From: Escherichia phage REP1
Sequence record: OQ174500.1
DNA: 64,000 nucleotides
Reading direction: 5' to 3' (one strand)
Part shown: positions 19,500 to 47,381 of the stretch, piece by piece
Numbering within the stretch: position 1 is the first letter of the stretch
Layout of the letters: the number at the start of each line of letters is the position of its first letter
Translations under genes and position numbers: made by a program
Notes under the pieces: model-generated
What the model was told of the DNA's origin: nothing
What the model saw: the letters and a program-made list of their open reading frames with translations, nothing else
The model's database searches: none

Positions 19500-19530
19500 T
19501 AATTCATCTGTTAACAAAAAAGGAAAAACG

Positions 19531-19866
19531 ATGTCTGAAGTACAACAGCTACCAATTCGTGCTGTCGGTGAATATGTTATTTTAGTTTCTGAACCTGCAC
19601 AAGCCGGTGATGAAGAAGTTACAGAATCAGGACTTATTATCGGTAAACGTGTTCAAGGTGAAGTTCCTGAACTGTGTGTAGTTCACTCTGTTGGTCCTGA
19701 TGTTCCTGAAGGTTTCTGCGAAGTTGGTGATTTGACTTCTCTTCCAGTTGGTCAAATTCGAAATGTTCCGCATCCTTTTGTAGCTCTGGGTCTTAAGCAG
19801 CCAAAAGAAATTAAACAAAAATTCGTTACTTGTCACTATAAAGCTATTCCGTGTCTTTATAAGTGA
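19531..19866 (+). CDS. 31: Co-chaperonin gp31 (GroES analogue for capsid folding)
   Basis: 111 aa [40 protein letters not shown]... matches T4 gp31. Confidence 0.93.
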
Positions 19867-20014
19867 TATAAATAATAATATGAATTGGGTGTCGGAATAA
19901 TAAGTTAACCGAACAATTCTATGTGGTAGTCTACAACTGAGAGATCTGTCGAAAGAAGATGAAATTCAGAAGAACGTGACTACCGAGTTTTTAATCTCTA
20001 ACGAGAATTTTTAA

Positions 20015-20263
20015 ATGATTAAACAATTACAACACGCTCTTGAACTGCAACGAAACGCATGGAATAATGGTCACGAAAACTATGGCGCATCTATTGATGT
20101 TGAAGCCGAAGCTCTTGAAATCCTGCGTTATTTCAAACATCTGAATCCTGCTCAAACTGCATTAGCTGCTGAGCTTCAGGAAAAAGATGAACTTAAGTAT
20201 GCTAAGCCTCTGGCTTCTGCTGCACGAAAAGCAGTTCGTCACTTTGTGGTAACATTGAAGTAA
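20015..20263 (+). CDS. rIII: rIII lysis-inhibition accessory protein
   Basis: 82 aa MIKQLQHALELQRNAWNNGHENYGASIDVEAEALEILRYF... matches T4 RIII. Confidence 0.9.
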   Translation: MIKQLQHALELQRNAWNNGHENYGASIDVEAEALEILRYFKHLNPAQTALAAELQEKDELKYAKPLASAARKAVRHFVVTLK

Positions 20264-20507
20264 TTTATTGGAGATTCACTGCCTTAGTGTGAGCTAAATC
20301 GAGGAGCCGTCGAACTGTCTGATCAATGATTTGCGAATCATTATAGTTTTAAGACCCCGGCAGTTTTACGGTGTACCTCTTGAATGTGAATGATGACGGG
20401 TTTATGGTTATCCTGGTCGTTAAATATCCAAAAACCTATGTTCCCCTTGAGGGCTTGCGCAGGCAATGCCAATAAGTCCTGCATTTTCATTTAAAAGAGA
20501 ATTTATA

Positions 20508-20684
20508 ATGGCAAAACAAGTTAAAGCAAAGAAAGCAGTTGAAAAGAAAGTTGGTGATTCTAAACGCGCTGGCTACAAGCGTGGGTCGAACTCTCGTATC
20601 AATCAAACTGTTGAGAAGATCATGCGCCGAGCACGTGCGGTTCTTCGAGATGATGCTTCTCGTTTTGGTAAGCAGAAAGCATAA
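20508..20684 (+). CDS. 30.9: Hypothetical basic protein, 58 aa
   Basis: MAKQVKAKKAVEKKVGDSKRAGYKRG... Lys/Arg-rich; followed by strong terminator. Confidence 0.5.
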   Translation: MAKQVKAKKAVEKKVGDSKRAGYKRGSNSRINQTVEKIMRRARAVLRDDASRFGKQKA

Positions 20685-20689
20685 GTTGA

Positions 20690-20718
20690 GGACTCCTTCG
20701 GGAGTCCTTTTTTATTTT
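20690..20718 (+). terminator. Rho-independent terminator
   Basis: ggactccttcgggagtcc hairpin plus T-run. Confidence 0.8.
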
Positions 20719-20794
20719 CCAAAGATTGCATAAAGTTGTTTACAGTATAGCTCCTTTGTGATAGTATTATCTTACACAAACAAAGGAGAATAAA

Positions 20795-21127
20795 ATGAAA
20801 ACGATTAATCTGAACGCTACAGTTAAAACTAAATGCTTCAATGGTAAATATGATGAAACTATGTGGTTCTTAATGGCAGTTGAAGGTGATATTATTGAAG
20901 TAGAAACAACAGAAGGTATGGGAACAGATTTCACTTTTACAATTCAAGTTCATAATTTCTTTACTGGTTGGATTTATGAATTGAATACAGTAATCGTTGG
21001 AAAAATTGAACAAAATGAATTAGGTGAATGGTATTATGTTACAGCTCGCCAACGTGCCGAACGTTTGATTGAGAAGATGAAAAAAGTTGGTAAACTTGAC
21101 ATGAAGCACTGGAAAGTAGTAAAATAA
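20795..21127 (+). CDS. 30.8: Hypothetical protein, 110 aa
   Basis: ORF with AAGGAG SD, preceded by early promoter gtttaca (20738). Confidence 0.55.
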   Translation: MKTINLNATVKTKCFNGKYDETMWFLMAVEGDIIEVETTEGMGTDFTFTIQVHNFFTGWIYELNTVIVGKIEQNELGEWYYVTARQRAERLIEKMKKVGKLDMKHWKVVK

Positions 21128-21195
21128 TTGTTTACTTTGGTACAGGATATGATATTATATACCTGTACCGCAATTAAACATCTTGGAGAATAAAA

Positions 21196-21561
21196 ATGAA
21201 CTACATCAACTTTGAACGTAAATATGTTTCTAATGGTATTGCAGGTTCTATTGATACTATTTGCCTTTGGAAACATCAAAATGGATCAGTATGCGAAATT
21301 GAACAGTATATGACTCCTAACTACGTTTATATGCGATTTGAAAATGGCATCACGGTTTCAATCACAATGGAAGGTTCAAACTTCAAAATCGCTCTGGATG
21401 ATGATTTCCGTCAGCGTGATTTAGGAACTCATCCTTGCTGGAATGGCGTTAATCGCAAGCTTCTTGTTAAAACTTGGATTCGTCATATTCTGAGTAACAG
21501 AGCTAAACCTGAGCATCTTGAAGCAATCTTTGATGTAGTTCTTAACGAATTTGATATTTAA
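21196..21561 (+). CDS. 30.7: Hypothetical protein, 121 aa
   Basis: ORF with GGAG SD; early promoter with flanking 8-bp inverted repeat upstream. Confidence 0.55.
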   Translation: MNYINFERKYVSNGIAGSIDTICLWKHQNGSVCEIEQYMTPNYVYMRFENGITVSITMEGSNFKIALDDDFRQRDLGTHPCWNGVNRKLLVKTWIRHILSNRAKPEHLEAIFDVVLNEFDI

Positions 21562-21602
21562 AATAAAATGAGGGGCTTCGGCCCCTTACTGAGGAAAATA
21601 CT

Positions 21603-21890
21603 ATGTTTATGACTACTTATTTTGATACCCGTAAAAATTTCTGTGAAGTGGTTTTCTCAAAGGCGCCTAAAGACCTTCCTGCTCATTTGCAACCTACCAG
21701 TGAATCGATTAAAAATTACGTTGATGTGGTTTGTCCTTTAGAATTCCGTACAGTAAATGGGCGTGATACTTTAGCTATCACTAAACTCAATCGTGAAATT
21801 GACATTGACCCTTCAATTGCGAGTGAAATTAACATTTCTGATATTGGCGGTGGTAATGTCAAATCACACGGCTTTCAGATGAGGTTCTAA
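21603..21890 (+). CDS. 30.6: Hypothetical protein, 95 aa
   Basis: ORF after hairpin ggggcttcggcccc. Confidence 0.5.
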   Translation: MFMTTYFDTRKNFCEVVFSKAPKDLPAHLQPTSESIKNYVDVVCPLEFRTVNGRDTLAITKLNREIDIDPSIASEINISDIGGGNVKSHGFQMRF

Positions 21891-22087
21891 TGAAATTCTT
21901 TTTAGGCCAAACTGTTGAATTAAAGGGAGTTGGTATACCTGGATTAATTTCTAAGGTTCTACCTCCATTTAAATGGAGTGGTATTCAAATAAAAGAGGCT
22001 TATATTGTTTCCTGGGTAGATGGAAATGAAGACCTTCGCATGGGTGATGAATTATCTCCTATTTACGGATTAAAGGAATTAGTATGA
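21890..22087 (+). CDS. 30.5: Hypothetical protein, 65 aa
   Basis: ORF with overlapping stop/start. Confidence 0.45.
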   Translation: MKFFLGQTVELKGVGIPGLISKVLPPFKWSGIQIKEAYIVSWVDGNEDLRMGDELSPIYGLKELV

Positions 22088-22290
22088 ATATAATTAATAA
22101 GATTTTTGGAATTCAGTACATTAAGGTCACATATAAAGTAACAGATAAAAATCCATATACTGATGAACATGAAGAACCACGAGTTGAGTCTGTTATATTA
22201 GAAAAGGACCCTAACTGGCCAGTTGAATTTCGTCTTCCTTGCTATGGTCATTGGGCTGATGTTGAAATTATAAGTATTGAAAATGTCTGA
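22084..22290 (+). CDS. 30.4: Hypothetical protein, 68 aa
   Basis: ORF with ATGA overlap. Confidence 0.45.
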   Translation: MNIINKIFGIQYIKVTYKVTDKNPYTDEHEEPRVESVILEKDPNWPVEFRLPCYGHWADVEIISIENV

Positions 22291-22741
22291 GTTAGAGATT
22301 AGAAGCAATTTTAGATGGCCATCATGCGCATTAAGTAATTTCGCTCAATGGCCTTTTGTTATGGATGGTATTCAATTCGGAGGTCTTGAAGGATTCCTCC
22401 AAGGATGCAAGGTGAAAAATGTTGAACAACAACGTCGTGTATTTGGGTTATCCGGGCTTGCCGCCCAACAAGCTGGAAGGTCTTATGCTAGAGCTCAGGA
22501 CCGTGGGACCCTCTTCTGGCTTGGAGTTCCGTTTTCAAGATACTCCCCGGCGTGGAAAGAATTATACACAAATGCATATTTTGAAGCAGCGATCCAAAAC
22601 AAGGGCTTTCGCGATGCATTACAAGCCTCGAAAGGAAAAGTTTTGAAGCACAGCATGGCCAGCGGTCTAACAAAAGATGATACAATACTAACCGAAGCTG
22701 AATTTATTGATGTGTTAAACCTATTAAGAGACTCTCTATGA
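22277..22741 (+). CDS. 30.3: NADAR / YbiA-like domain protein (predicted ADP-ribose / NAD-derivative processing enzyme)
   Basis: 154 aa; motif LSNFAQWPFVMDGIQF...EGFLQGCKV resembles E. coli YbiA DFSNFAAWPIKVDGKTW...EHYFQAQKF; locally GC-rich relative to flanks. Confidence 0.6.
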   Translation: MKMSELEIRSNFRWPSCALSNFAQWPFVMDGIQFGGLEGFLQGCKVKNVEQQRRVFGLSGLAAQQAGRSYARAQDRGTLFWLGVPFSRYSPAWKELYTNAYFEAAIQNKGFRDALQASKGKVLKHSMASGLTKDDTILTEAEFIDVLNLLRDSL

Positions 22742-23598
22742 AGCCTACTATTTTAACTGATATTGATGGAGTATGTTTAAGCTGGCAATCTGGACTTCCT
22801 TATTTTGCCCAAAAATATAATCTTCCATTAGAACATATTTTAAAAATGATCCAAGATGAGAAATTTATTTCTCCTGGCAAACTCTTTAATTGTGATGAAG
22901 AACTTGGCGTCAAGTTAATTGAAAAATACAATCGTTCAGATTTTATTCGTTACTTGTCTCCATATAAAGATGCCCTGTGTGTAATTAACAAATTAAAAGA
23001 AGATTATAATTTTGTAGCTGTTACAGCATTGGGTGATTCTATTGACGCTCTGCTGAATCGTCAATTTAATTTGAATGCTCTTTTTCCTGGTGCCTTCTCA
23101 GAAGTATTGATGTGTGGTCATGATTCTTCAAAAGAAGAGTTGTTCAAAAAGGCAAAAGAGAAATATAACGTAATTTGTTATATTGACGATCTCGCTCACC
23201 ACTGCGATCATGCGAGTGAAATATTAAATGTGCCTGTTTATTGGATGGCTCGAGGGGAACGTGACAGTATTCCAAAAACTGCACAGCGAGTTTATACATG
23301 GAATGATGTAGAGAATAAGCTTTTTCCATCGAAGGAAAATAAAGAAAGTTTTGATAGTGAAAAAGCTATAAAAGATGTAATTGAAAAGATGATTAAAAAC
23401 GATTCTTTTCGTTGGAACACTACCTGGAGAACTCCTGGATTTAATCCTTATAATCCATATCATCCATATTATACACACTCATATCAGAATCCATTCCATC
23501 CATTCCATACGTGGAGTTATATTAAGCCTGGCGATTCAGGGTATTTTAATAGACTTACTAGTGGTAGTGGTGATAATATTTTCCAAGGAGCATTCTAA
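22738..23598 (+). CDS. 30.2: HAD-like hydrolase (putative nucleotidase) with Pro/aromatic-rich C-terminal tail
   Basis: 286 aa; N-terminal ILTDIDGV (HAD motif I DxDG); C-terminal NPYNPYHPYYTHSYQNPFHPFHTW low-complexity segment. Confidence 0.55.
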   Translation: MKPTILTDIDGVCLSWQSGLPYFAQKYNLPLEHILKMIQDEKFISPGKLFNCDEELGVKLIEKYNRSDFIRYLSPYKDALCVINKLKEDYNFVAVTALGDSIDALLNRQFNLNALFPGAFSEVLMCGHDSSKEELFKKAKEKYNVICYIDDLAHHCDHASEILNVPVYWMARGERDSIPKTAQRVYTWNDVENKLFPSKENKESFDSEKAIKDVIEKMIKNDSFRWNTTWRTPGFNPYNPYHPYYTHSYQNPFHPFHTWSYIKPGDSGYFNRLTSGSGDNIFQGAF

Positions 23599-23867
23599 TG
23601 TTTGTTGTTCACACTATTTATGAAAATGAAGGTAATACTACACGTGATTATGGTCACGTAAATCAGTTTTTTAGATGCAATCCAGAATTCCGAGCTCAAA
23701 AAGACGAACGAATTTTTAAAAAATGTGTAGAGCAAGGTTTTATTTACGTCAAGCACTGGATGCAAGGAAATAAAGTTAGAACCACGTACCACAGGTCTTT
23801 GACTGAGCTTAATGATGAATTGATTTATAATAGAGCTGTAAACCAAACTCTAAAGGATGAACAATGA
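23598..23867 (+). CDS. 30.1: Hypothetical protein, 89 aa
   Basis: ORF with ATGA overlaps on both sides. Confidence 0.5.
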   Translation: MFVVHTIYENEGNTTRDYGHVNQFFRCNPEFRAQKDERIFKKCVEQGFIYVKHWMQGNKVRTTYHRSLTELNDELIYNRAVNQTLKDEQ

Positions 23868-25327
23868 TTCTTAAAATTCTGAACGAAATAGCATCTATTG
23901 GTTCAACTAAGCAGAAGCAAGCAATTCTTGAAAAGAATAAAGATAATGAATTGCTTAAACGAGTATATCGTCTGACTTATTCTCGTGGGTTACAGTATTA
24001 TATCAAGAAATGGCCTAAACCGGGTATTGCTACCCAGAGTTTTGGAATGCTGACTATTACCGATATGCTTGACTTCATTGAATTCACGTTAGCTACTCGG
24101 AAATTGACCGGAAATGCTGCAATTGAGGAATTGACTGGATATATCACCGATGGTAAAAAGGATGATGTTGAAGTTTTGCGTCGAGTGATGATGCGAGACC
24201 TTGAATGCGGTGCTTCAGTATCTATTGCAAACAAAGTTTGGCCAGGTTTAATTCCTGAACAACCTCAAATGCTGGCAAGTTCTTATGATGAAAAGGGCAT
24301 TAGTAAGAATATCAAATTTCCAGCCTTTGCCCAGTTAAAAGCTGATGGGGCTCGGTGCTTTGCCGAAGTCAGAGGTGATGAATTAGATGATGTTCGTCTT
24401 TTATCACGAGCCGGTAATGAATATCTAGGATTAGATCTTCTTAAGGAAGAATTAATCAAAATGACCGCTGAAGCCCGCCAGATTCATCCAGAAGGCGTGT
24501 TAATTGATGGCGAATTGGTATACCATGAGCAAGTTAAAAAGGAGCCAGAAGGCCTAGATTTTCTTTTTGATGCTTATCCTGAAATTAGTAAAGCCAAAGA
24601 ATTCGCCGAAGTAGCTGAATCACGTACTACTTCTAATGGAATCGCTAATAAATCTTTAAAGGGAACCATTTCTGAAAAAGAAGCTCAATGCATGAAGTTT
24701 CAGGTCTGGGATTATGTTCCATTGGTAGAAATATACGGTCTTCCTGCATTTCGTTTGAAATATGATGTACGTTTTTCTAAACTAGAACAAATGACATCAG
24801 GCTATGATAAAGTAATTTTAATTGAAAACCAGGTAGTAAATAACCTAGATGAAGCTAAGGTAATTTATAAAAAGTATATTGACCAAGGTCTTGAAGGTAT
24901 TATTCTCAAAAATATCGATGGATTATGGGAAAATGCTCGTTCAAAAAATCTCTATAAATTTAAAGAAGTAATTGATGTTGATTTAAAAATTGTAGGAATT
25001 TATCCTCACCGTAAAGACCCTACTAAAGCAGGTGGATTTATTCTTGAGTCAGAGTGTGGAAAAATTAAAGTAAATGCTGGTTCAGGCTTAAAAGATAAAG
25101 CCGGTGTAAAATCACATGAACTTGACCGTACTCGCATTATGGAAAACCAAAATTATTATATTGGAAAAATTCTAGAGTGCGAATGCAACGGTTGGTTAAA
25201 ATCTGATGGTCGCACTGATTACGTTAAATTATTTCTTCCGATTGCGATTCGTTTACGTGAAGATAAAACTAAAGCTAATACATTCGAGGATGTATTTGGT
25301 GATTTTCATGAGGTAACTGGTCTATGA
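23864..25327 (+). CDS. 30: ATP-dependent DNA ligase
   Basis: 487 aa; adenylation motif KADGAR (FAQLKADGARCF); matches T4 DNA ligase. Confidence 0.96.
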   Translation: MILKILNEIASIGSTKQKQAILEKNKDNELLKRVYRLTYSRGLQYYIKKWPKPGIATQSFGMLTITDMLDFIEFTLATRKLTGNAAIEELTGYITDGKKDDVEVLRRVMMRDLECGASVSIANKVWPGLIPEQPQMLASSYDEKGISKNIKFPAFAQLKADGARCFAEVRGDELDDVRLLSRAGNEYLGLDLLKEELIKMTAEARQIHPEGVLIDGELVYHEQVKKEPEGLDFLFDAYPEISKAKEFAEVAESRTTSNGIANKSLKGTISEKEAQCMKFQVWDYVPLVEIYGLPAFRLKYDVRFSKLEQMTSGYDKVILIENQVVNNLDEAKVIYKKYIDQGLEGIILKNIDGLWENARSKNLYKFKEVIDVDLKIVGIYPHRKDPTKAGGFILESECGKIKVNAGSGLKDKAGVKSHELDRTRIMENQNYYIGKILECECNGWLKSDGRTDYVKLFLPIAIRLREDKTKANTFEDVFGDFHEVTGL

Positions 25328-25512
25328 AAGCTTACTTAGAAACAATTGTCATTGCTCAAAAAGAAGGTGGAGATGTTTCTACTTCTGTATCACAAGTCAT
25401 TCTCGAATTTGTAGATGCATACGCTTATAATAAATTTACAGAAACATTTGATGCCTATGAAAAAGGACCAAAGTTTGAAATATATCGTACTCTCTTACCA
25501 CTAGATTACTAA
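25324..25512 (+). CDS. Hypothetical protein, 62 aa
   Basis: ORF with ATGA overlap to ligase stop; followed by terminator. Confidence 0.45.
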   Translation: MKAYLETIVIAQKEGGDVSTSVSQVILEFVDAYAYNKFTETFDAYEKGPKFEIYRTLLPLDY

Positions 25513-25541: not shown

Positions 25542-25564
25542 GAATAAACACTAGAGAGGATATG

Positions 25565-27658
25565 ATGGAACTTATTACAGAATTATTTGACGAAGATACT
25601 ACTCTTCCGATTACAAACTTAAATCCAAAGAAGAAAATACCGCAAATTTTTTCAGTTCACGTTGATGATGCAATTGAACAGCCAGGCTTTCGTTTATGTA
25701 CCTATACATCTGGAGGTGATACTAATCGCGATTTAAAGATGGGCGATAAAATGATGCATATTGTTCCTTTTACATTAACTGCTAAAGGTTCAATTGCTAA
25801 ATTAAAAGGTCTTGGTCCAAGCCCAATTAATTATATCAATTCAGTTTTTACTGTTGCAATGCAAACAATGCGTCAGTATAAAATTGATGCTTGTATGCTT
25901 CGTATTCTTAAGTCTAAAACCGCTGGTCAAGCTCGACAAATTCAAGTTATTGCTGATAGACTTATCCGTAGTCGTTCAGGTGGCAGATACGTCCTTCTTA
26001 AGGAACTCTGGGATTATGATAAAAAGTATGCATATATTCTTATATATCGCAAAAATGTATCACTAGAAGACATTCCAGGAGTTCCGGAAATTAGTACCGA
26101 GCTCTTTACTAAAGTTGAATCGAAAGTCGGTGATGTTTATATCAATAAAGATACTGGAGCCCAAGTAACTAAAAATGAGGCAATTGCAGCATCTATTGCA
26201 CAAGAAAATGATAAACGTTCTGACCAAGCTGTAATCGTTAAAGTTAAAATTTCCCGTAGAGCAATTGCACAAAGTCAGTCATTGGAATCTTCTAGATTTG
26301 AAAGTGAATTATTCCAGAAGTATGAATCTACAGCAGCTAATTTTAATAAACCAGCTACTGCACCTTTAATTCCCGAAGCAGAAGAAATGAAAATTGGAAT
26401 TAATTCATTAGCTTCTAAAACAAAGGCAGCAAAAATTATTGCTGAAGGAACGGCAGATGAACTTCACTATGATTATAAATTCTTTCCAATGAGTCAAGTC
26501 GGTGAAGTTTCAGAAAAAATTAAAGAAGTAATTTTTAATGCAATTAAAAATGAACCAACTACTTCAATAAAATGTTTAGAGAAATACGCAGCAGCTGTAA
26601 ATCAATTCTTTGAAGATTATAAAGATAAATGGCTTGCTAATCATAATAAAAATCGTAAAGGACAACCAGATGAAGTCTGGGAAGAAATAACTAAAAATTC
26701 CTGGAACGCAGCAAAAACTAAATTCCTCAAACGAATGATTTACAGTTTTTCTGGAATTGGTGCTGGTCCAATGATTGATATTACTATTGCCCGCGATGGT
26801 TCTAAATATACTCCATCACAAAAGCGTGGCATTAGAGAATATTGCGGTTCAGGATATACTGACATCAATAATCTTCTTTTAGGTCGTTACAATCCAGAAC
26901 GATATGATGTAATGAGTGAAAAAGAAATTGAATCTGCTATAAATAACTTAGATTCAGCTTTTGAAAATGGTGACCGCATACCGGAAGGCATCACAGTTTA
27001 TCGTGCTCAAAGTATGACTGCTCCTATATACGAAGCACTAGTTAAAAATAAAGTGTTCTATTTCAGAAATTTTGTATCTACTTCTTTAACTCCTATCATT
27101 TTTGGACGTTTTGGAATTACACATGCTGGTATTGGTCTTTTAGAACCAGAAGCTCGTAATGAATTAACAGTTGATAAAAATGAAGAAGGAATAACTATTA
27201 ATCCAAACGAAATAAGAGCGTATAAAGAAAATCCTGAATACGTTAAAGTTCAAATAGGATGGGCAATTGATGGAGCTCATAAAGTTAATGTTGTATATCC
27301 AGGAAGTCTCGGAATAGCAACAGAAGCTGAAGTTATTCTACCGCGCGGATTGATGGTCAAAGTTAATAAAATAACTGATGCTTCTAATAATGACGGAACA
27401 ACATCTAATAATACAAAACTCATTCAAGCTGAAGTTATGACCACAGAAGAACTCACCGAATCGGTAATCTATGACGGAGACCATTTAATGGAAACCGGCG
27501 AAGTAGTTGCAATGACAGATGATATTGAAATAGAAGACAGAGTTGACTTTGCATCATTTGTTTCATCAAATGTTAAACAGAAAGTAGAATCATCTCTTGG
27601 AATTATTGCGTCTTGCATAGATATTACAAACATGCCTTACAAGTTCGTTCAAGGATAA
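25565..27658 (+). CDS. alt: Alt, head-packaged ADP-ribosyltransferase (modifies host RNA polymerase)
   Basis: MELITELFDEDTTLPITNLNPKKKIPQIFSVHVDD... matches T4 Alt; C-terminal R-S-E type ART motifs (YRAQ, FVSTSL, TEAEVILPRG). Confidence 0.9.
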   Translation: MELITELFDEDTTLPITNLNPKKKIPQIFSVHVDDAIEQPGFRLCTYTSGGDTNRDLKMGDKMMHIVPFTLTAKGSIAKLKGLGPSPINYINSVFTVAMQTMRQYKIDACMLRILKSKTAGQARQIQVIADRLIRSRSGGRYVLLKELWDYDKKYAYILIYRKNVSLEDIPGVPEISTELFTKVESKVGDVYINKDTGAQVTKNEAIAASIAQENDKRSDQAVIVKVKISRRAIAQSQSLESSRFESELFQKYESTAANFNKPATAPLIPEAEEMKIGINSLASKTKAAKIIAEGTADELHYDYKFFPMSQVGEVSEKIKEVIFNAIKNEPTTSIKCLEKYAAAVNQFFEDYKDKWLANHNKNRKGQPDEVWEEITKNSWNAAKTKFLKRMIYSFSGIGAGPMIDITIARDGSKYTPSQKRGIREYCGSGYTDINNLLLGRYNPERYDVMSEKEIESAINNLDSAFENGDRIPEGITVYRAQSMTAPIYEALVKNKVFYFRNFVSTSLTPIIFGRFGITHAGIGLLEPEARNELTVDKNEEGITINPNEIRAYKENPEYVKVQIGWAIDGAHKVNVVYPGSLGIATEAEVILPRGLMVKVNKITDASNNDGTTSNNTKLIQAEVMTTEELTESVIYDGDHLMETGEVVAMTDDIEIEDRVDFASFVSSNVKQKVESSLGIIASCIDITNMPYKFVQG

Positions 27659-27661
27659 ATC

Positions 27662-29719
27662 ATGGAACTTATTACAGAATTATTTGACGGCGCTTCGGCG
27701 CCGGTTGTTAACTTAAATCCTAAGCATAAAATACCACAAATTTTTGCTATCCAAGTCGGCGAAGAAAGCGTGCTTCCTGGATTTAGATTTTGTACATACA
27801 CCTCTGGCGGTGATACAAATAAAAACGTTAAGCCAGGCGACAAAATGATGCATATCGTAATGATAGGTGTTAATGAGAAACTATCATTAGTTAAGCTTAA
27901 AAACTTGGGTGGAAATCCAATTGGCGTCATTAATGCTGTTTTTGATACTGCTCTTCAAACAATGAAACAGTATAAAATTGATGCATGCTTATTCCGCATA
28001 CTAAAGAGTAAAACAAATGGCGCTGCTCGTCAAATGCAAGTTATTGCTGACCGTTTAGTACGTACTAAAGGAGCAGGTCGATATGTTCTTTTAAAGGAAA
28101 TCTGGGACTATGATAAGAAATATGCATATATTATGGTTTACCGTAAAAATGCCAATTTAGAAGACATTCCAGGTGTACCTCCTATTTCAACTGAGTTATT
28201 CACAAAAGTTGAATCAAAGGTTGGTGATATTTATGTAGACGTTAAAACAGGTAATGCTGTTCCTAAAGCTGTCGCAGTTGCTGCTTCTATTGCTTTGGAA
28301 AATGATAAGCGCACGGATCAAGCTGTTATTCAGAAAACTAAAATTAGTCGTCGATTAGCAGCACAAGCTCAATATTCTACTGTTGATGCTTCACTTCAGG
28401 GTGATAGCTTCGCTGCTAAGAAATATCAAGAGTTTGAATCCAAAGTTCCGGTATATAAAGCAGAAGGACCAATGAACTCTGGCGTTATTCAGATTGGTTC
28501 AAACTTCGGCAAAGGAGCTATCGGTGGTATGAGAAGTGCTTCTCGTTTTAAATCTAACGATTATGAACTAGAAAACTTCCGAAATCATATTGCATTGGCC
28601 CATGCACGTTTACGCGATCCATCTATCAAGCTGCAGAGCGATATAACATATCAAGGTTCTCAAGAATATTTAAAGAATAAAGAATTCTTTGATTATAAAA
28701 CTGATAAAATTTTAAGCGATCTTGCTGACATTAATATTTCTAATAGCTTTGATGTTATTAAGAAAATTATCAATGATTTAGTTAAAGGTTCTAAAGCTAC
28801 ACCAGATGAAAAGACAGCTATTATTCAATTTGTCATGAATGGCATTTATAAATTGATTAATGAATCTGCCGCTCAGGCATATGAATATGCAAGTACTGAA
28901 GTAACTCCAAAAGGATTAACTCAGGCTGAGTCTGATGTAATTGAAGATTATTGTGCAGATTCATATGTTGAAATGAACTCGTTCCTTTTGGGTAAACCAG
29001 ATTCTACCCGTGAAGAATATATGGAACGAGCTATTAAACATATTGAGACGCTTGATTCTGCATTCGCTAAAGGTTCAGTTCTTCCTCCAGGAACTACACT
29101 TTACCGTGGACAAGAAGTTACCTTTAAAACTTTGCGTCATAACATTGAAAATAAAATGTTCTATTTCAAGAACTTCGTATCCACATCGCTTAAACCAAAT
29201 ATCTTCGGTGAGCATGGTAAAAACTATATGGCTCTAGATGATTCCGGCGCAGTATTTTCTGGCGAAGGAGAAGGTTCCGTTGATGCAGAAGATTTGATGC
29301 ATATGGGTAGTCATTCTACATATGCTAATGAAGATGCTGAAACTAGCGTGGGTATGGTAATTAAAGGAGCTGAGCGAATCAAAGTTATCGTTCCAGGTCA
29401 TTTATCAGGATTTCCATCAGAAGCTGAAGTTATTCTACCGCGTGGAATTTTACTGAAGATTAATAAAGTGAGCACGTACTTTATGAAAGAAACTGCTTAT
29501 AACAAGTATCTAATAGAAGGTACAATCGTTCCTCCTTCTGAACAATTAGAGGAATCGGTATATGATGGCGACCATCTAATGGAAACTGGTGAAGTTCGTC
29601 CAATGGCTGGATTTAATCAATTCCTTGTAGAAGAATCAAAAGAAGAGGAAAACGAAGTTTCTCAAATCTTGGCTTCTTTTGTTAACATCAACGGAATGTC
29701 TAAAAAGTTCAAAATGTAG
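27662..29719 (+). CDS. Alt-like ADP-ribosyltransferase paralog, full length, divergent central region
   Basis: 685 aa starting MELITELFDGASAPVVNLNPKHKIPQIF...; shares N-terminal ~200 aa and C-terminal ART motifs (YRGQ, FVSTSL, SEAEVILPRG) with Alt; centre differs. Confidence 0.8.
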   Translation: MELITELFDGASAPVVNLNPKHKIPQIFAIQVGEESVLPGFRFCTYTSGGDTNKNVKPGDKMMHIVMIGVNEKLSLVKLKNLGGNPIGVINAVFDTALQTMKQYKIDACLFRILKSKTNGAARQMQVIADRLVRTKGAGRYVLLKEIWDYDKKYAYIMVYRKNANLEDIPGVPPISTELFTKVESKVGDIYVDVKTGNAVPKAVAVAASIALENDKRTDQAVIQKTKISRRLAAQAQYSTVDASLQGDSFAAKKYQEFESKVPVYKAEGPMNSGVIQIGSNFGKGAIGGMRSASRFKSNDYELENFRNHIALAHARLRDPSIKLQSDITYQGSQEYLKNKEFFDYKTDKILSDLADINISNSFDVIKKIINDLVKGSKATPDEKTAIIQFVMNGIYKLINESAAQAYEYASTEVTPKGLTQAESDVIEDYCADSYVEMNSFLLGKPDSTREEYMERAIKHIETLDSAFAKGSVLPPGTTLYRGQEVTFKTLRHNIENKMFYFKNFVSTSLKPNIFGEHGKNYMALDDSGAVFSGEGEGSVDAEDLMHMGSHSTYANEDAETSVGMVIKGAERIKVIVPGHLSGFPSEAEVILPRGILLKINKVSTYFMKETAYNKYLIEGTIVPPSEQLEESVYDGDHLMETGEVRPMAGFNQFLVEESKEEENEVSQILASFVNINGMSKKFKM

Positions 29720-43625: not shown

Positions 43626-44904
43626 CATCAACGATAATTTTTGGTAGCTTAACACCTAATAAAACAGACAAATCTGAACGACCCGCCATTTTATCCATGT
43701 CTCCACCATCAATTACTCTTGCTTCTTTTTCATCTTTTGCTACGGTGTAAGGATTTGCAGATAAAGCATATCTAACTAATAAACCGATAGACGGTTGCAA
43801 GCTTTCTGGATCAACAACAACTTTAAATGCACCTACATGTTCAGGGTCATCTAAGTCGAGACCTTCTGTATACGGAGCATAGAAAATTGATCCAACAATT
43901 TCTTTTTCACCGATATTTTCTACTACGCCAACGATTACATAATCTAATGGGCTGTTAGTATCGCAATAAAGCGGTAAACCATTAGCTAAGAACCCATAGG
44001 CATTTTGTGAAAGATATTTATCATCTTCTGGTTTATGTTTTAACCAACCTGATGCAGCAAGAATCGCAGCGGCACGAGCTGAAGCAACACAAAACGTTGC
44101 TGTATAAGTTGATTCTTTTTGGATATGCGAAACCATTTCACATACCATTCGATATAATGAACGACCAGCTTCAGGTGCAGATGCATAACTCAAATCAATG
44201 AATCCAGTATCAGTAATTCCTGTAACTTTATAACGTTTTGATACTGTAATCAAAGACTGCAGAATATCTTTATTGATTTCATCTGCCATTTCAGTTGCAA
44301 GCAAATCTTCCAAGAAATTAGGAGCATCGAATCCATTTGCTTCTAAATCTTGTGCTAATTCAACTGTGATACCAGTTTTAAGTTTACGAGATTTAACGGC
44401 GGTTTGCCATTTATTAATCTGGAATCTAGCATCTGCAATTTCGCTATCAGAGCTTTCAAATTTGCTTGTTACTGCAGCATCAGAAAATAGACGAACCTTT
44501 AAAAGAACAATTGCAATCTGAAGAGCTAATTCTAAATCACTTTCTTCAATATCAGCAAATGGTGTATCTTCTAATACTTTATAAACGATGTTATTATATT
44601 TGAATAAATCGCCTTTATTGAGAGTTAATTTAGACTCTTCTGTTAATTCTGTGATTTGTTCTCGGTCTACATATCCAGCTTCGCCAGCATAAGTAGCACC
44701 AGTTTTAAATGTAAATTCATTGTCTGGGTTAAGGTATTTGATACCATAAAAAGCAGCAACAGGTTGATTAGTTCTTTGCGTTGCTACAATGTCAGAATAT
44801 ATTAATTTAGTGGTAGCGCGAGTCAAAGCAACGAGATTTGGGCGACCGATTGAGTTGCTATTCGTTGTGGTTGATTCGCGCAGAAGTTCGTTGATTTTAG
44901 CCAT
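43621..44904 (-). CDS. 24: Capsid vertex protein gp24
   Basis: 427 aa; paralog of gp23; equals T4 gp24 length. Confidence 0.92.
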   Translation of the reverse strand: MAKINELLRESTTTNSNSIGRPNLVALTRATTKLIYSDIVATQRTNQPVAAFYGIKYLNPDNEFTFKTGATYAGEAGYVDREQITELTEESKLTLNKGDLFKYNNIVYKVLEDTPFADIEESDLELALQIAIVLLKVRLFSDAAVTSKFESSDSEIADARFQINKWQTAVKSRKLKTGITVELAQDLEANGFDAPNFLEDLLATEMADEINKDILQSLITVSKRYKVTGITDTGFIDLSYASAPEAGRSLYRMVCEMVSHIQKESTYTATFCVASARAAAILAASGWLKHKPEDDKYLSQNAYGFLANGLPLYCDTNSPLDYVIVGVVENIGEKEIVGSIFYAPYTEGLDLDDPEHVGAFKVVVDPESLQPSIGLLVRYALSANPYTVAKDEKEARVIDGGDMDKMAGRSDLSVLLGVKLPKIIVDE

Positions 44905-44931
44905 TGCGCTTTCCTTTTGGTTTATATGATT

Positions 44932-44939
44932 TATTTATA
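44932..44939 (-). promoter_or_regulatory. Late promoter TATAAATA for gene 24
   Basis: tatttata on plus strand, 28-35 nt upstream of gp24 start. Confidence 0.6.
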
Positions 44940-44956
44940 CCATAAAAACAACTAAA

Positions 44957-44972
44957 GGGACCCGAAGGTCCC
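44957..44972 (-). terminator. Hairpin downstream of gene 23
   Basis: gggacccgaaggtccc with T-rich tract on the minus-strand transcript. Confidence 0.6.
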
Positions 44973-44987
44973 TTAAATCGTCAAAGA

Positions 44988-46553
44988 TTAGATACCTTTA
45001 ACATATACACGTCTAAAGTAAGCGTTTTTACCAAGGCTATTCAGAATAGAAGGCATACCGCTCTGGATGCGAGAAGCCGGAGCCTGAGCAGCGGATTCTG
45101 CAAATGGGTTGATACCGATACCGTAACGAGTTTTGAATCCCATTACTGGTTGGAAGTTCTTCGGATCGGAACCACGCAGCGGAGTCAGAGCTACATATGG
45201 AGCGTAGTAAATACCAGCATCCATTTCGTTCGGACCTTTATAACCTACAGTGAAATAATCCTGTTTAGCATACTGGTCGATATATACACGGTATTTACCA
45301 CCCAGAACACCAGCAAATACTGACTTGGTAGTATCAGTGTTAAAGCCGGTAGCCAGACCCTGTGCAGCATAAGAAATGCCAGTATCAACTGAAGCCAGAA
45401 CGTTAACTACGTTACGGGAAGCGATAATGAAGTTACCTTCACCGCGACCGGTCTGACGAGCAATTTCAACTGCTTCTTTGTCAATCTGGAACAACAGAGC
45501 TTTAAAGGATTCACCTGCCCAGCGAGCACCACGAATATCGATTGGGTCCTGGAAGTCAAATACACCAGCTTTAGAACCCGGAGTCAGGGTCATACCAGAT
45601 TTACCAACCTGAGCTGAGTAGTTAATCCAATCAACAACTTCACGGTTGATTTCCAGCATAATTTCTGTAGCCAGAATGCCAGACAGTTCAGCATCAGCAT
45701 CCATACCGTGAACAGCGCGGAGGTCCTGTGCTAATTCGATAGAGTAAGCAGCTTTCAGCTGACGAGATTTAGCTTCGATAACTTGTTTATCGATACGGAA
45801 GCCCATTTCATTCCATGGGTTATCGGTAGAACCATTGAAACCTTCCTGGAGTTCAGCGATAGAAGTAGCCATACCTTCAGCGATTTCTACCAGTGCACCA
45901 GCTTCCATTTGTTTCTTAATTTCAGCATCTAATTTATCTGCATCAGTTGCGCTTGCACTAATTGTTACTTGAGCAGAAGCTTGCAGATACACAGTACCAG
46001 TGTCCTGGAAGAAGTGAGTATAGATATCACCTACTGTGGTTTCTGTGCTAGCAGCCAGAGCTGGGAATTTCTTAGCAGCACCCTGACCAGAGAACATTGC
46101 ATCTGGACCATACATTGGGTGGAATGCTTCTTTAGCACCGGCAGCGATCGGATCTTTACCATATACCGCGCGGAGTGCGAATACCTGACCGGTTGGGCTG
46201 CTCATCGGTTGAACACCGCAAATATCGAAAGCAATCAGGTTAGGAATAGCACGACGTACCATACCCATAACAGCCGGGCCAATCTGAGTTACTGCGCCAG
46301 AAGTCTGACCTGCAGCGATGTTGGTAGCATTGTAACCGTGGTCACCACCGATTTCAGCTTCTGTTAAGAAAGAACCGAACGCCTGAGCGATTTTTTCGTC
46401 TTTGTACTCTGGAGCTGTCTGGAAATCTTTTTCCTGGTTTTCAAAGATTTTAGCGATAATCGCTTGTTTGCTATTAGCAATTTCCGGTAAACCTTCACCT
46501 TCCAGTAATGGCTTCCATTTGTTCAAAAGTTCAGCTTTAGTTTTGATAGTCAT
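44988..46553 (-). CDS. 23: Major capsid protein gp23
   Basis: 521 aa MTIKTKAELLNKWKPLLEGEGLPEIANSKQAIIAKIFENQEKDF... matches T4 gp23. Confidence 0.97.
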   Translation of the reverse strand: MTIKTKAELLNKWKPLLEGEGLPEIANSKQAIIAKIFENQEKDFQTAPEYKDEKIAQAFGSFLTEAEIGGDHGYNATNIAAGQTSGAVTQIGPAVMGMVRRAIPNLIAFDICGVQPMSSPTGQVFALRAVYGKDPIAAGAKEAFHPMYGPDAMFSGQGAAKKFPALAASTETTVGDIYTHFFQDTGTVYLQASAQVTISASATDADKLDAEIKKQMEAGALVEIAEGMATSIAELQEGFNGSTDNPWNEMGFRIDKQVIEAKSRQLKAAYSIELAQDLRAVHGMDADAELSGILATEIMLEINREVVDWINYSAQVGKSGMTLTPGSKAGVFDFQDPIDIRGARWAGESFKALLFQIDKEAVEIARQTGRGEGNFIIASRNVVNVLASVDTGISYAAQGLATGFNTDTTKSVFAGVLGGKYRVYIDQYAKQDYFTVGYKGPNEMDAGIYYAPYVALTPLRGSDPKNFQPVMGFKTRYGIGINPFAESAAQAPASRIQSGMPSILNSLGKNAYFRRVYVKGI

Positions 46554-46571
46554 TTGTGTTAACCTTTAAAA

Positions 46572-47381
46572 TTAGAAACGAGATGCGACTTTCGCATATA
46601 CACTTACAATATCTTCTGCACCAGGTGCAGCTTTATCTTCTACAGCTTCAGTGACGAAATTCAGTCCGGCTGCTTCAGTATCAGGAGTATTTATACCCTC
46701 AGTAATAGTGCTTTCATCTTTATTAGACTTCTTCACCATTTCTACGATGGCACTCAATTTACTTGAGAATTCATCTGAATAATCCATACCTTCGACCAGA
46801 GCAGAGACTTTTTCTTTTTGAGACTCAGTCAGATCTTTAGTACTTTCGCTCAATGCCACTTCACGCTGCACATAATTGATATATGCGTCACGCTTATTGA
46901 GTTCTTCGAACAGACGAGCTGATTCTTCTTTATGTTCTTGCAGCTCTTCTTCCATTTCAGCTACAACATCAACTGATTCTTCTGGAACAACAACGTTGTG
47001 TTCAACAAAGAGCTCTTTTAATCCACCAAGCATGGATTCAAACAGTTCGGCTTTGATGCCTTTATCAACTGCTAATTTATTTTCAGCGAGCCATTCTTTC
47101 GCAAGATGGTCGATGAATTTAGAAGCTTGCTCAGCGATTTTCTTCTCAGCTTTTTCTTCGGCTTCTTCTTTATTTTTTTCTACTTCTTCTTCTGCTTTTT
47201 CAGCAATTTTAGCGATATGAGATTCAGCTAATTTAACGGCGTGCTGCTTGACGGTAGCTTCGAATACAGTGCCGAAAGTTTCTTTTGCTTCCGGAGAAAT
47301 ATTAACTGATTCGAAAATACTATCAAGAGCAACGGAAGCATCAATTTTTTGCGCTTCAGCAATCAGTTGTTCTTTAAGCAT
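46572..47381 (-). CDS. 22: Prohead core scaffold protein gp22
   Basis: 269 aa, highly charged coiled-coil; equals T4 gp22. Confidence 0.9.
   Translation of the reverse strand: MLKEQLIAEAQKIDASVALDSIFESVNISPEAKETFGTVFEATVKQHAVKLAESHIAKIAEKAEEEVEKNKEEAEEKAEKKIAEQASKFIDHLAKEWLAENKLAVDKGIKAELFESMLGGLKELFVEHNVVVPEESVDVVAEMEEELQEHKEESARLFEELNKRDAYINYVQREVALSESTKDLTESQKEKVSALVEGMDYSDEFSSKLSAIVEMVKKSNKDESTITEGINTPDTEAAGLNFVTEAVEDKAAPGAEDIVSVYAKVASRF
46688..46695 (-). promoter_or_regulatory. Late promoter TATAAATA inside 3' end of gene 22 (gene 23 promoter)
   Basis: tatttata on plus strand; T4 P23 is known to lie within gene 22. Confidence 0.55.

Follow-up and report, generated by a model that had tools for sequence, protein, structure and literature searches.

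The window analysed here is a stretch of 64,000 nucleotides of DNA from a T4-like (Tequatrovirus) phage. At the DNA level, positions 22084-22760 share 97.2% identity with T4 and as much as 98.2% with other genomes of Tequatrovirus. The gene of interest, adfN (gene 30.3 of T4), is placed between genes 30.4 and 30.2, upstream of the DNA ligase gene 30. The gene order 30.7-30.6-30.5-30.4-adfN-30.2-30.1-ligase is that of T4, and matches the T4 map order 30.8-30.7-30.6-30.5-30.4-30.3-30.2-30.1-30 in reverse complement. The features of the locus are:

22084-22290, + strand: gene 30.4, 68 aa; the 30.4 stop and the adfN start overlap (ATGTCTGA)
22277-22282, + strand: in-frame TTG-AAA 5' of the true adfN ATG; start of the mechanically called ORF
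22283-22741, + strand: adfN (T4 gene 30.3) CDS, predicted NADAR-fold DNA ADP-ribosylglycohydrolase, 152 aa plus stop (assigned from the ORF, the PF08010 match, amino acid identity to T4 GT7 gp30.3, the AlphaFold2 model and Foldseek)
22388-22390, + strand: GAA codon of predicted catalytic Glu36, invariant in 84 homologs
22409-22411, + strand: AAG codon of predicted catalytic Lys43, at least 90% conserved in 84 homologs
22419-22646, + strand: ORF 30.3', 75 aa, internal to adfN in frame +1; annotated in T4 and matched by Pfam DUF2883
22649-22651, + strand: codon of His123, at the end of the last strand (residues 120-122 in the model), invariant in 84 homologs
22694-22735, + strand: C-terminal helix, residues 138-151 in the AlphaFold2 model, intact here
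22738-23598, + strand: gene 30.2, 286 aa; the adfN stop and the 30.2 start overlap (ATGA)

The mechanically called ORF with a TTG start spans 22277-22741 and encodes 154 aa, and the preliminary description had placed the start of the gene at this TTG. We moved the start to the ATG at 22283, because it gives the 459 nt CDS annotated for 30.3 in T4, because it is the only start that matches the published numbering of E36 and K43, and because the ATG is conserved (14/14 close relatives, 15/15 sequences) and the upstream TTG is not, being GTC in the group of relatives with approximately 85% identity. The overlap between the 30.4 stop and the adfN start makes it probable that these two genes are translationally coupled. 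A scan of positions 19500-25500 for promoters and terminators was uninformative overall, with 24 promoter-like sites found and 21.6 expected, and only one strong promoter site and one good hairpin stood out. The promoter site (21096-21125, + strand) lies just upstream of 30.7 and is of near-consensus sigma-70 type, with TTGACA, an 18-nt spacer and TAAAAT (11/12 matches). The hairpin (20688-20709, + strand) is strong, is followed by a T-run, and lies after the preceding small gene. Together these two elements could delimit the transcription unit carrying adfN.

The predicted protein is 98.7% identical to T4 GT7 gp30.3 (150/152 residues), with two conservative substitutions (V53 for I53 and M125 for I125), and 100% identical to a protein of Shigella phage Sf22. 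It matches Pfam family PF08010 (Phage_30_3) over profile positions 1-138 of 138, with E=3e-70 and a score of 234.8 bits against a cutoff of 36. Homologs of adfN were detected by tblastn in 1510 phage records, from phages of Escherichia, Klebsiella, Aeromonas, Acinetobacter, Vibrio and other hosts. The PHROGs label for the protein is function unknown, and scans with NCBIfam and PADLOC gave no matches.

The preliminary description had recognized NADAR/YbiA-like motifs in the protein, and these are present at residues 17-43 (LSNFAQWPFVMDGIQFGGLEGFLQGCK). It had also held that failure to find significant NADAR similarity in a profile search would count against this reading. A direct Pfam scan with the protein at E<=1 found PF08010 only and no match to PF08719 (NADAR), so this test would have been misleading here. 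At the family level, however, similarity was found: 12 of 84 family members individually matched PF08719 (best E=1.5e-7), and the family profile matched E. coli YbiA (E=0.0067) over the SNF...E..Q..K motif. A single-sequence phmmer search against the PDB gave only a chance match (E=0.49). Structure prediction, which had been proposed as a further check, recovered the NADAR fold. The AlphaFold2 model, built on an 84-sequence alignment, had pLDDT 94 and pTM 0.89, and the top three Foldseek matches in the PDB were all NADARs, each with probability of at least 0.99: YbiA (2B3W, E=2.9e-5), the Phytophthora (P. nicotianae) NADAR with ADP-ribose (8BAU) and the Geobacter lovleyi NADAR (8BAT). The fourth-ranked match had a probability of 0.05, and nothing beyond these three NADAR structures was significant. 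The NADAR assignment is thus independently confirmed at the level of fold and family profile.

The residues invariant in the 84-sequence alignment are P13, A16-L-S-N-F20, E36-G-F38, Q40, H123 and T134-x-L-T137. E36 and K43 lie in an E-G-F-x-Q-x(2)-K motif which aligns with the E..Q..K of YbiA. A His in the last strand has been reported to mark the phage (gp30.3-type) NADARs, compared with a Glu in YbiA and an Asp in DarG1 (PMC11125620, PMC11543638), and the C-terminal helix, which is missing from the frameshifted allele of phage RB69, is needed for full activity (PMC11825919). The protein encoded in the window consists of the core domain only (152 aa) and keeps E36, K43, H123 and the full C-terminal helix. 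On the basis of its sequence, this allele, with V53 and M125, is predicted to be active.

Comparison with characterized NADARs places the protein with T4 gp30.3, since renamed AdfN. The two share their length, flanking genes, start and stop overlaps, E36/K43/H123 and the internal 30.3' ORF, and apart from the two substitutions they differ in the neighboring gp30.2, which is 278 aa in T4 and 286 aa here and only 91% identical. The DarG1 NADARs of E. coli C7 and Geobacter/Trichlorobacter lovleyi (8BAT) have the same fold (Foldseek probability 0.99) and, from published work on the T4 protein, the same guanine-ADPr hydrolysis chemistry, and in a published phylogeny DarG1 is the clade nearest to the gp30.3-type NADARs. 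However, AdfN lacks an adjoining DarT1 gene, its neighbors being 30.4 and the HAD-like 30.2; it has 152 aa without an N-terminal extension, compared with 219 aa; the catalytic Asp of DarG1 is replaced by His123; and T4 AdfN fails to rescue uninfected cells from DarT1. The PADLOC scan of AdfN gave no match. The absence of an adjoining DarT1, the His123 in place of Asp and the lack of the extension set the protein apart from the DarG1 antitoxins. E. coli YbiA (2B3W) is the best structural match (TM 0.62-0.67) and shares the SNF...E..Q..K motif, but is only 17% identical, has a housekeeping physiological role as an N-glycosidase of riboflavin intermediates, and carries a Glu at the last-strand position that His123 occupies in AdfN. 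As this Glu defines the YbiA subfamily, the protein falls outside that subfamily as well. AdfN-Bas32 and AdfN-Bas60, from T5-like and Vequintavirinae phages, are likewise phage NADARs which counter DarTG1, but they belong to other NADAR clades, were independently acquired and do not need a T-even factor.

The preliminary description had proposed that the product acts on ADP-ribose-linked substrates and might reverse the effect of DarT-type defense toxins. For the T4 ortholog this has been demonstrated both in vitro and with deletion phenotypes. The DarTG1 resistance of T2 and T4 was mapped to 30.3, and gp30.3, renamed AdfN, was found to be necessary and sufficient for T-even resistance to DarTG1 (Johannesman et al. 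2025, Nat Commun, PMC11825919). In the same study, T4 and T2 with adfN deleted failed to plate on DarTG1 hosts but plated normally on an empty-vector host; RB69, whose own frameshifted allele lacks the last 15 residues and is non-functional, was rescued by ectopic adfN; E36A, K43A and truncation impaired the function of AdfN-T4; the purified protein stripped ADP-ribose from DNA; and DarTG2 was not countered (PMC11825919). NADARs more generally have been described as guanine-linked ADP-ribose hydrolases and DarG1 antitoxins, with the phage His subfamily singled out (PMC11543638).

We therefore assign 22283-22741, with a probability of about 0.95, as the ortholog of T4 30.3 (adfN), encoding a NADAR-fold N-glycohydrolase that counters DarTG1. 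Identity, fold, catalytic residues, the full-length allele and synteny were established in this analysis; the activity and the anti-DarTG1 phenotype come from literature on the 98.7%-identical T4 protein. In the proposed mechanism, infection of a DarTG1 cell would lead DarT1 to ADP-ribosylate guanines in the phage DNA and thereby block replication. AdfN, made from the early/middle 30.7-30 gene block in which its start and stop overlap its neighbors, would then hydrolyze the guanine-ADP-ribose bond, and replication would be restored. The protein would thus be a minimal, core-only NADAR-fold N-glycohydrolase that targets the damage enzymatically and does not bind the toxin.

Several homologs appear to be natural loss-of-function alleles. 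Two (P0015 and P0016) are frameshift products which join the AdfN frame to the 30.3' frame, a third (P0049) was counted in the same class, and a deletion in phage vB_EcoM-RPN226 has left the 30.8 N-terminus joined to the final third of AdfN. Alleles of the P0015, P0016 and RPN226 types resemble the RB69 frameshift, which suggests that adfN has been lost repeatedly.

The published data also contain a complication. T4 gp30.3 hydrolyzed guanine-ADPr on DNA in vitro but failed to rescue DarT1 toxicity in cells (Toxins 2024, PMC11125620), and AdfN-T4 was fully effective only in T-even infections, giving weak help to T5 and Bas25 (PMC11825919). This inactivity against DarT1 in uninfected E. coli, together with the weak effect in T5 and Bas25, means that an account in which the hydrolase is enough is incomplete, and an additional T-even factor seems to be required for full activity of AdfN-T4. 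Gene 30.2 is conserved in the T-even group, of which RB69 is a member, and T5 and Bas25 are unrelated siphophages. The adjoining gene product gp30.2 is a speculative candidate for this T-even-specific potentiating factor. Residues 1-220 have a confidently predicted HAD-superfamily fold that in the PDB is closest to 5'(3')-deoxyribonucleotidases, and D8, D10 and D150-D151 are invariant. The tail at residues 244-286, with many Pro, His, Tyr and Asn residues, is disordered and differs in length between this phage and T4. No Pfam family and no sequence-level PDB match were found for gp30.2, so that the likeness to HAD proteins comes from the fold search alone. In close relatives, and in a few of the distant T4-like phages, gene 30.2 adjoins adfN or lies near it. 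However, a 30.2 homolog within 3 kb was present at only some 6 of the 66 distant adfN loci, and the linkage of the two genes is therefore not general. This argues against gp30.2, to which we give a slim chance of being the missing factor. The product of 30.3' was ruled out in this role, as the ORF is already contained in the adfN constructs that fail in uninfected cells.

A different role for AdfN would be in the phage's own ADP-ribosyltransferase (ART) biology, in which the enzyme mainly reverses or tunes modifications made by Alt, ModA and ModB, or degrades soluble ADP-ribose signals, rather than repairing DarT1 damage. The preliminary description had found a NADAR notable in a genome that injects ADP-ribosyltransferases. 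Such a role is suggested by proximity, as two Alt-like ART genes lie 2.8 kb downstream (25562-27658 and 27662-29719), and by an earlier contextual remark of Iyer et al. 2022, who pointed out that NADARs and ARTs are co-expressed in T4-like phages and favored soluble substrates. However, both the phenotype and the chemistry speak against this role. Deletion of adfN has a DarTG1-specific phenotype, with normal plating on the empty-vector host. All NADARs tested hydrolyze guanine-ADPr, and the T4 NADAR, which fails to reverse thymidine-ADPr, is absent from the listed cytidine-ADPr erasers. Alt and Mod enzymes modify arginine residues of proteins, and NADARs are not known to cleave the protein arginine-ADP-ribose linkage. 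The DarTG1 phenotype and the guanine specificity thus argue against the proposed link, and we consider a main role in reversing the phage's own ARTs highly improbable.

The two Alt-like genes are arranged in tandem on the + strand, encode proteins of 698 and 685 aa that are 42% identical, and both match Pfam ADPrib_exo_Tox. The corresponding stretch of the T4 reference has one alt gene where the window has two. Approximately 470 records of Tequatrovirus contain the second copy at 95% identity or more, in some cases under the name alt_2.

The preliminary description had also called the gene a GC-rich island and taken this as a sign of horizontal acquisition. The GC-richness is real but moderate. 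The region 22277-22741 has 42.8% GC, compared with a window mean of 36.0% (SD 3.4% in 465-nt windows) and 33.7-36.1% in the adfN flanks; 2.9% of windows of the same size are as GC-rich, and there are approximately 11 comparable peaks in the 64 kb. The gene itself, at 43.1% GC (z=2.2) against a gene mean of 35.5%, ranks second of 82 putative genes, and its third-position GC (35.3% against 24.5%) also ranks second. The major capsid gene is the only gene with a higher GC content than adfN. Within adfN, GC reaches up to 57% in the core (22450-22549). An excess of 5.5-6.9 points is found in all close T4 relatives, and the published phylogeny places gp30.3-type NADARs nearest bacterial DarG1; these observations would fit adfN being a recently acquired foreign island, with its GC content as a consequence. 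However, the amino acid sequence of AdfN written with the codon usage of the window would already give an expected GC of 40.6%, such that amino acid composition explains approximately 5 of the 7.6 excess points (about two thirds). The residual from codon choice is +2.6 points, approximately 1.4 SD, and ranks sixth of 82. The GC-rich appearance comes mostly from a stretch rich in Ala, Gly, Arg and Gln at residues ~55-86. Furthermore, over 81 homologous loci spanning 27-65% GC, with flanks at 24-64% GC, gene GC followed flank GC (r=0.95) with a small intrinsic excess of approximately 2 points. The linkage of adfN, 30.2 and ligase is kept in a second group of phages (AdfN 85% identical, ligase 62-70%) and in several phages with AdfN only 43-46% identical. 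Taken with the occurrence of homologs in 1510 phage records, the composition, the tracking of flank GC and the ligase linkage indicate that any transfer predates the diversification of the T4-like phages. A high GC content offers weak evidence that adfN, an old resident of T4-like genomes, was horizontally transferred. The GC excess noted earlier therefore stands, but a recent import is far-fetched, and any acquisition would be ancient.

The GC-richest stretch of the window (44718-46716, up to 49.5% in 465-nt windows) contains the gp23 major capsid gene (44988-46553, - strand; 45.3% GC, Pfam Gp23), showing that high GC here also marks a highly expressed core gene and not foreign DNA alone. Between the T4 group and the second group (loci L008-L014 and L048, compared over positions 20795-25327 of the window), AdfN is 84-86% and gp30.7 90-94% identical, and in the same comparison the neighboring products are much less similar (30.4 39-47%, 30.1 44-45%, DNA ligase 62-70%). 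The high conservation of these two small proteins, AdfN and gp30.7, points to mosaic exchange or else to an unusually strong constraint on both.

An ORF of 75 aa overlapping adfN in another frame had also been noted in the preliminary description. This ORF exists, and is already known in T4 as 30.3'. It could be a genuine second gene with an internal start, forming a functional overlapping pair with adfN: T4 annotates it as 'internal translation, in a different reading frame' and it has its own Pfam family, DUF2883; a Shine-Dalgarno-like AAGGTG located 6 nt 5' of the ATG is kept in 15/15 close relatives; codon 1 or 2 is ATG, GTG or TTG in all close relatives; and 13 of the 14 close relatives of full length keep a stop-free stretch of 76 codons, including those at approximately 80% nucleotide identity. 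However, DUF2883 is circular evidence, because the family was built from these same annotated ORFs, and the length of the ORF is within what the adfN protein sequence gives by chance. When adfN codons were resampled synonymously, a +1 ATG ORF of at least 75 codons appeared in 5-12% of trials, and an ORF that long in any alternative frame in 11-18%. Just four codon pairs inside the stretch could create a +1 stop.

Every synonymous third-position change in adfN hits the second codon position of 30.3', so the overlap should show constraint on synonymous change if 30.3' were under selection. Synonymous differences inside and outside the overlap were 0.147 and 0.139 in the T4 group, with further values of 0.174 and 0.190, and 0.363 and 0.394 between groups, and no pairwise Fisher test for reduced synonymous change was significant (p>0.16). 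The 30.3' translation is 55-64% identical where AdfN, read from the same bases, holds 79-84%. Among the relatives, the ORF of L013 is interrupted by a stop and that of L003 has its ATG changed to ACG, and the ORF is missing from homologs of 46% identity or less. Two antisense ORFs, 22488-22685 (65 aa) and 22495-22656 (53 aa), both on the - strand, occur in the same GC-rich core, which fits a general depletion of stop codons there and not the presence of extra genes. We thus found no sign of selection on 30.3' by resampling, synonymous change or divergence, and a literature search for ribosome-profiling or proteomic evidence of alternative frames in T4 returned nothing relevant. A functional overlapping gene is very unlikely; most probably 30.3' is a by-product of the GC-rich core of adfN, in which stop codons are depleted.

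The gene, fold, biochemistry and DarTG1 role of adfN were already known from work published in 2023-2025, and 'hypothetical protein' is the label still used in most of the 1510 phage records that carry a homolog. The analysis also makes a reasoned case that the long-annotated T4 ORF 30.3' (DUF2883) is probably not a gene. For the phage itself, the intact adfN allele predicts resistance to DarTG1-carrying hosts, unlike phages with an RB69-type frameshift or an RPN226-type deletion.
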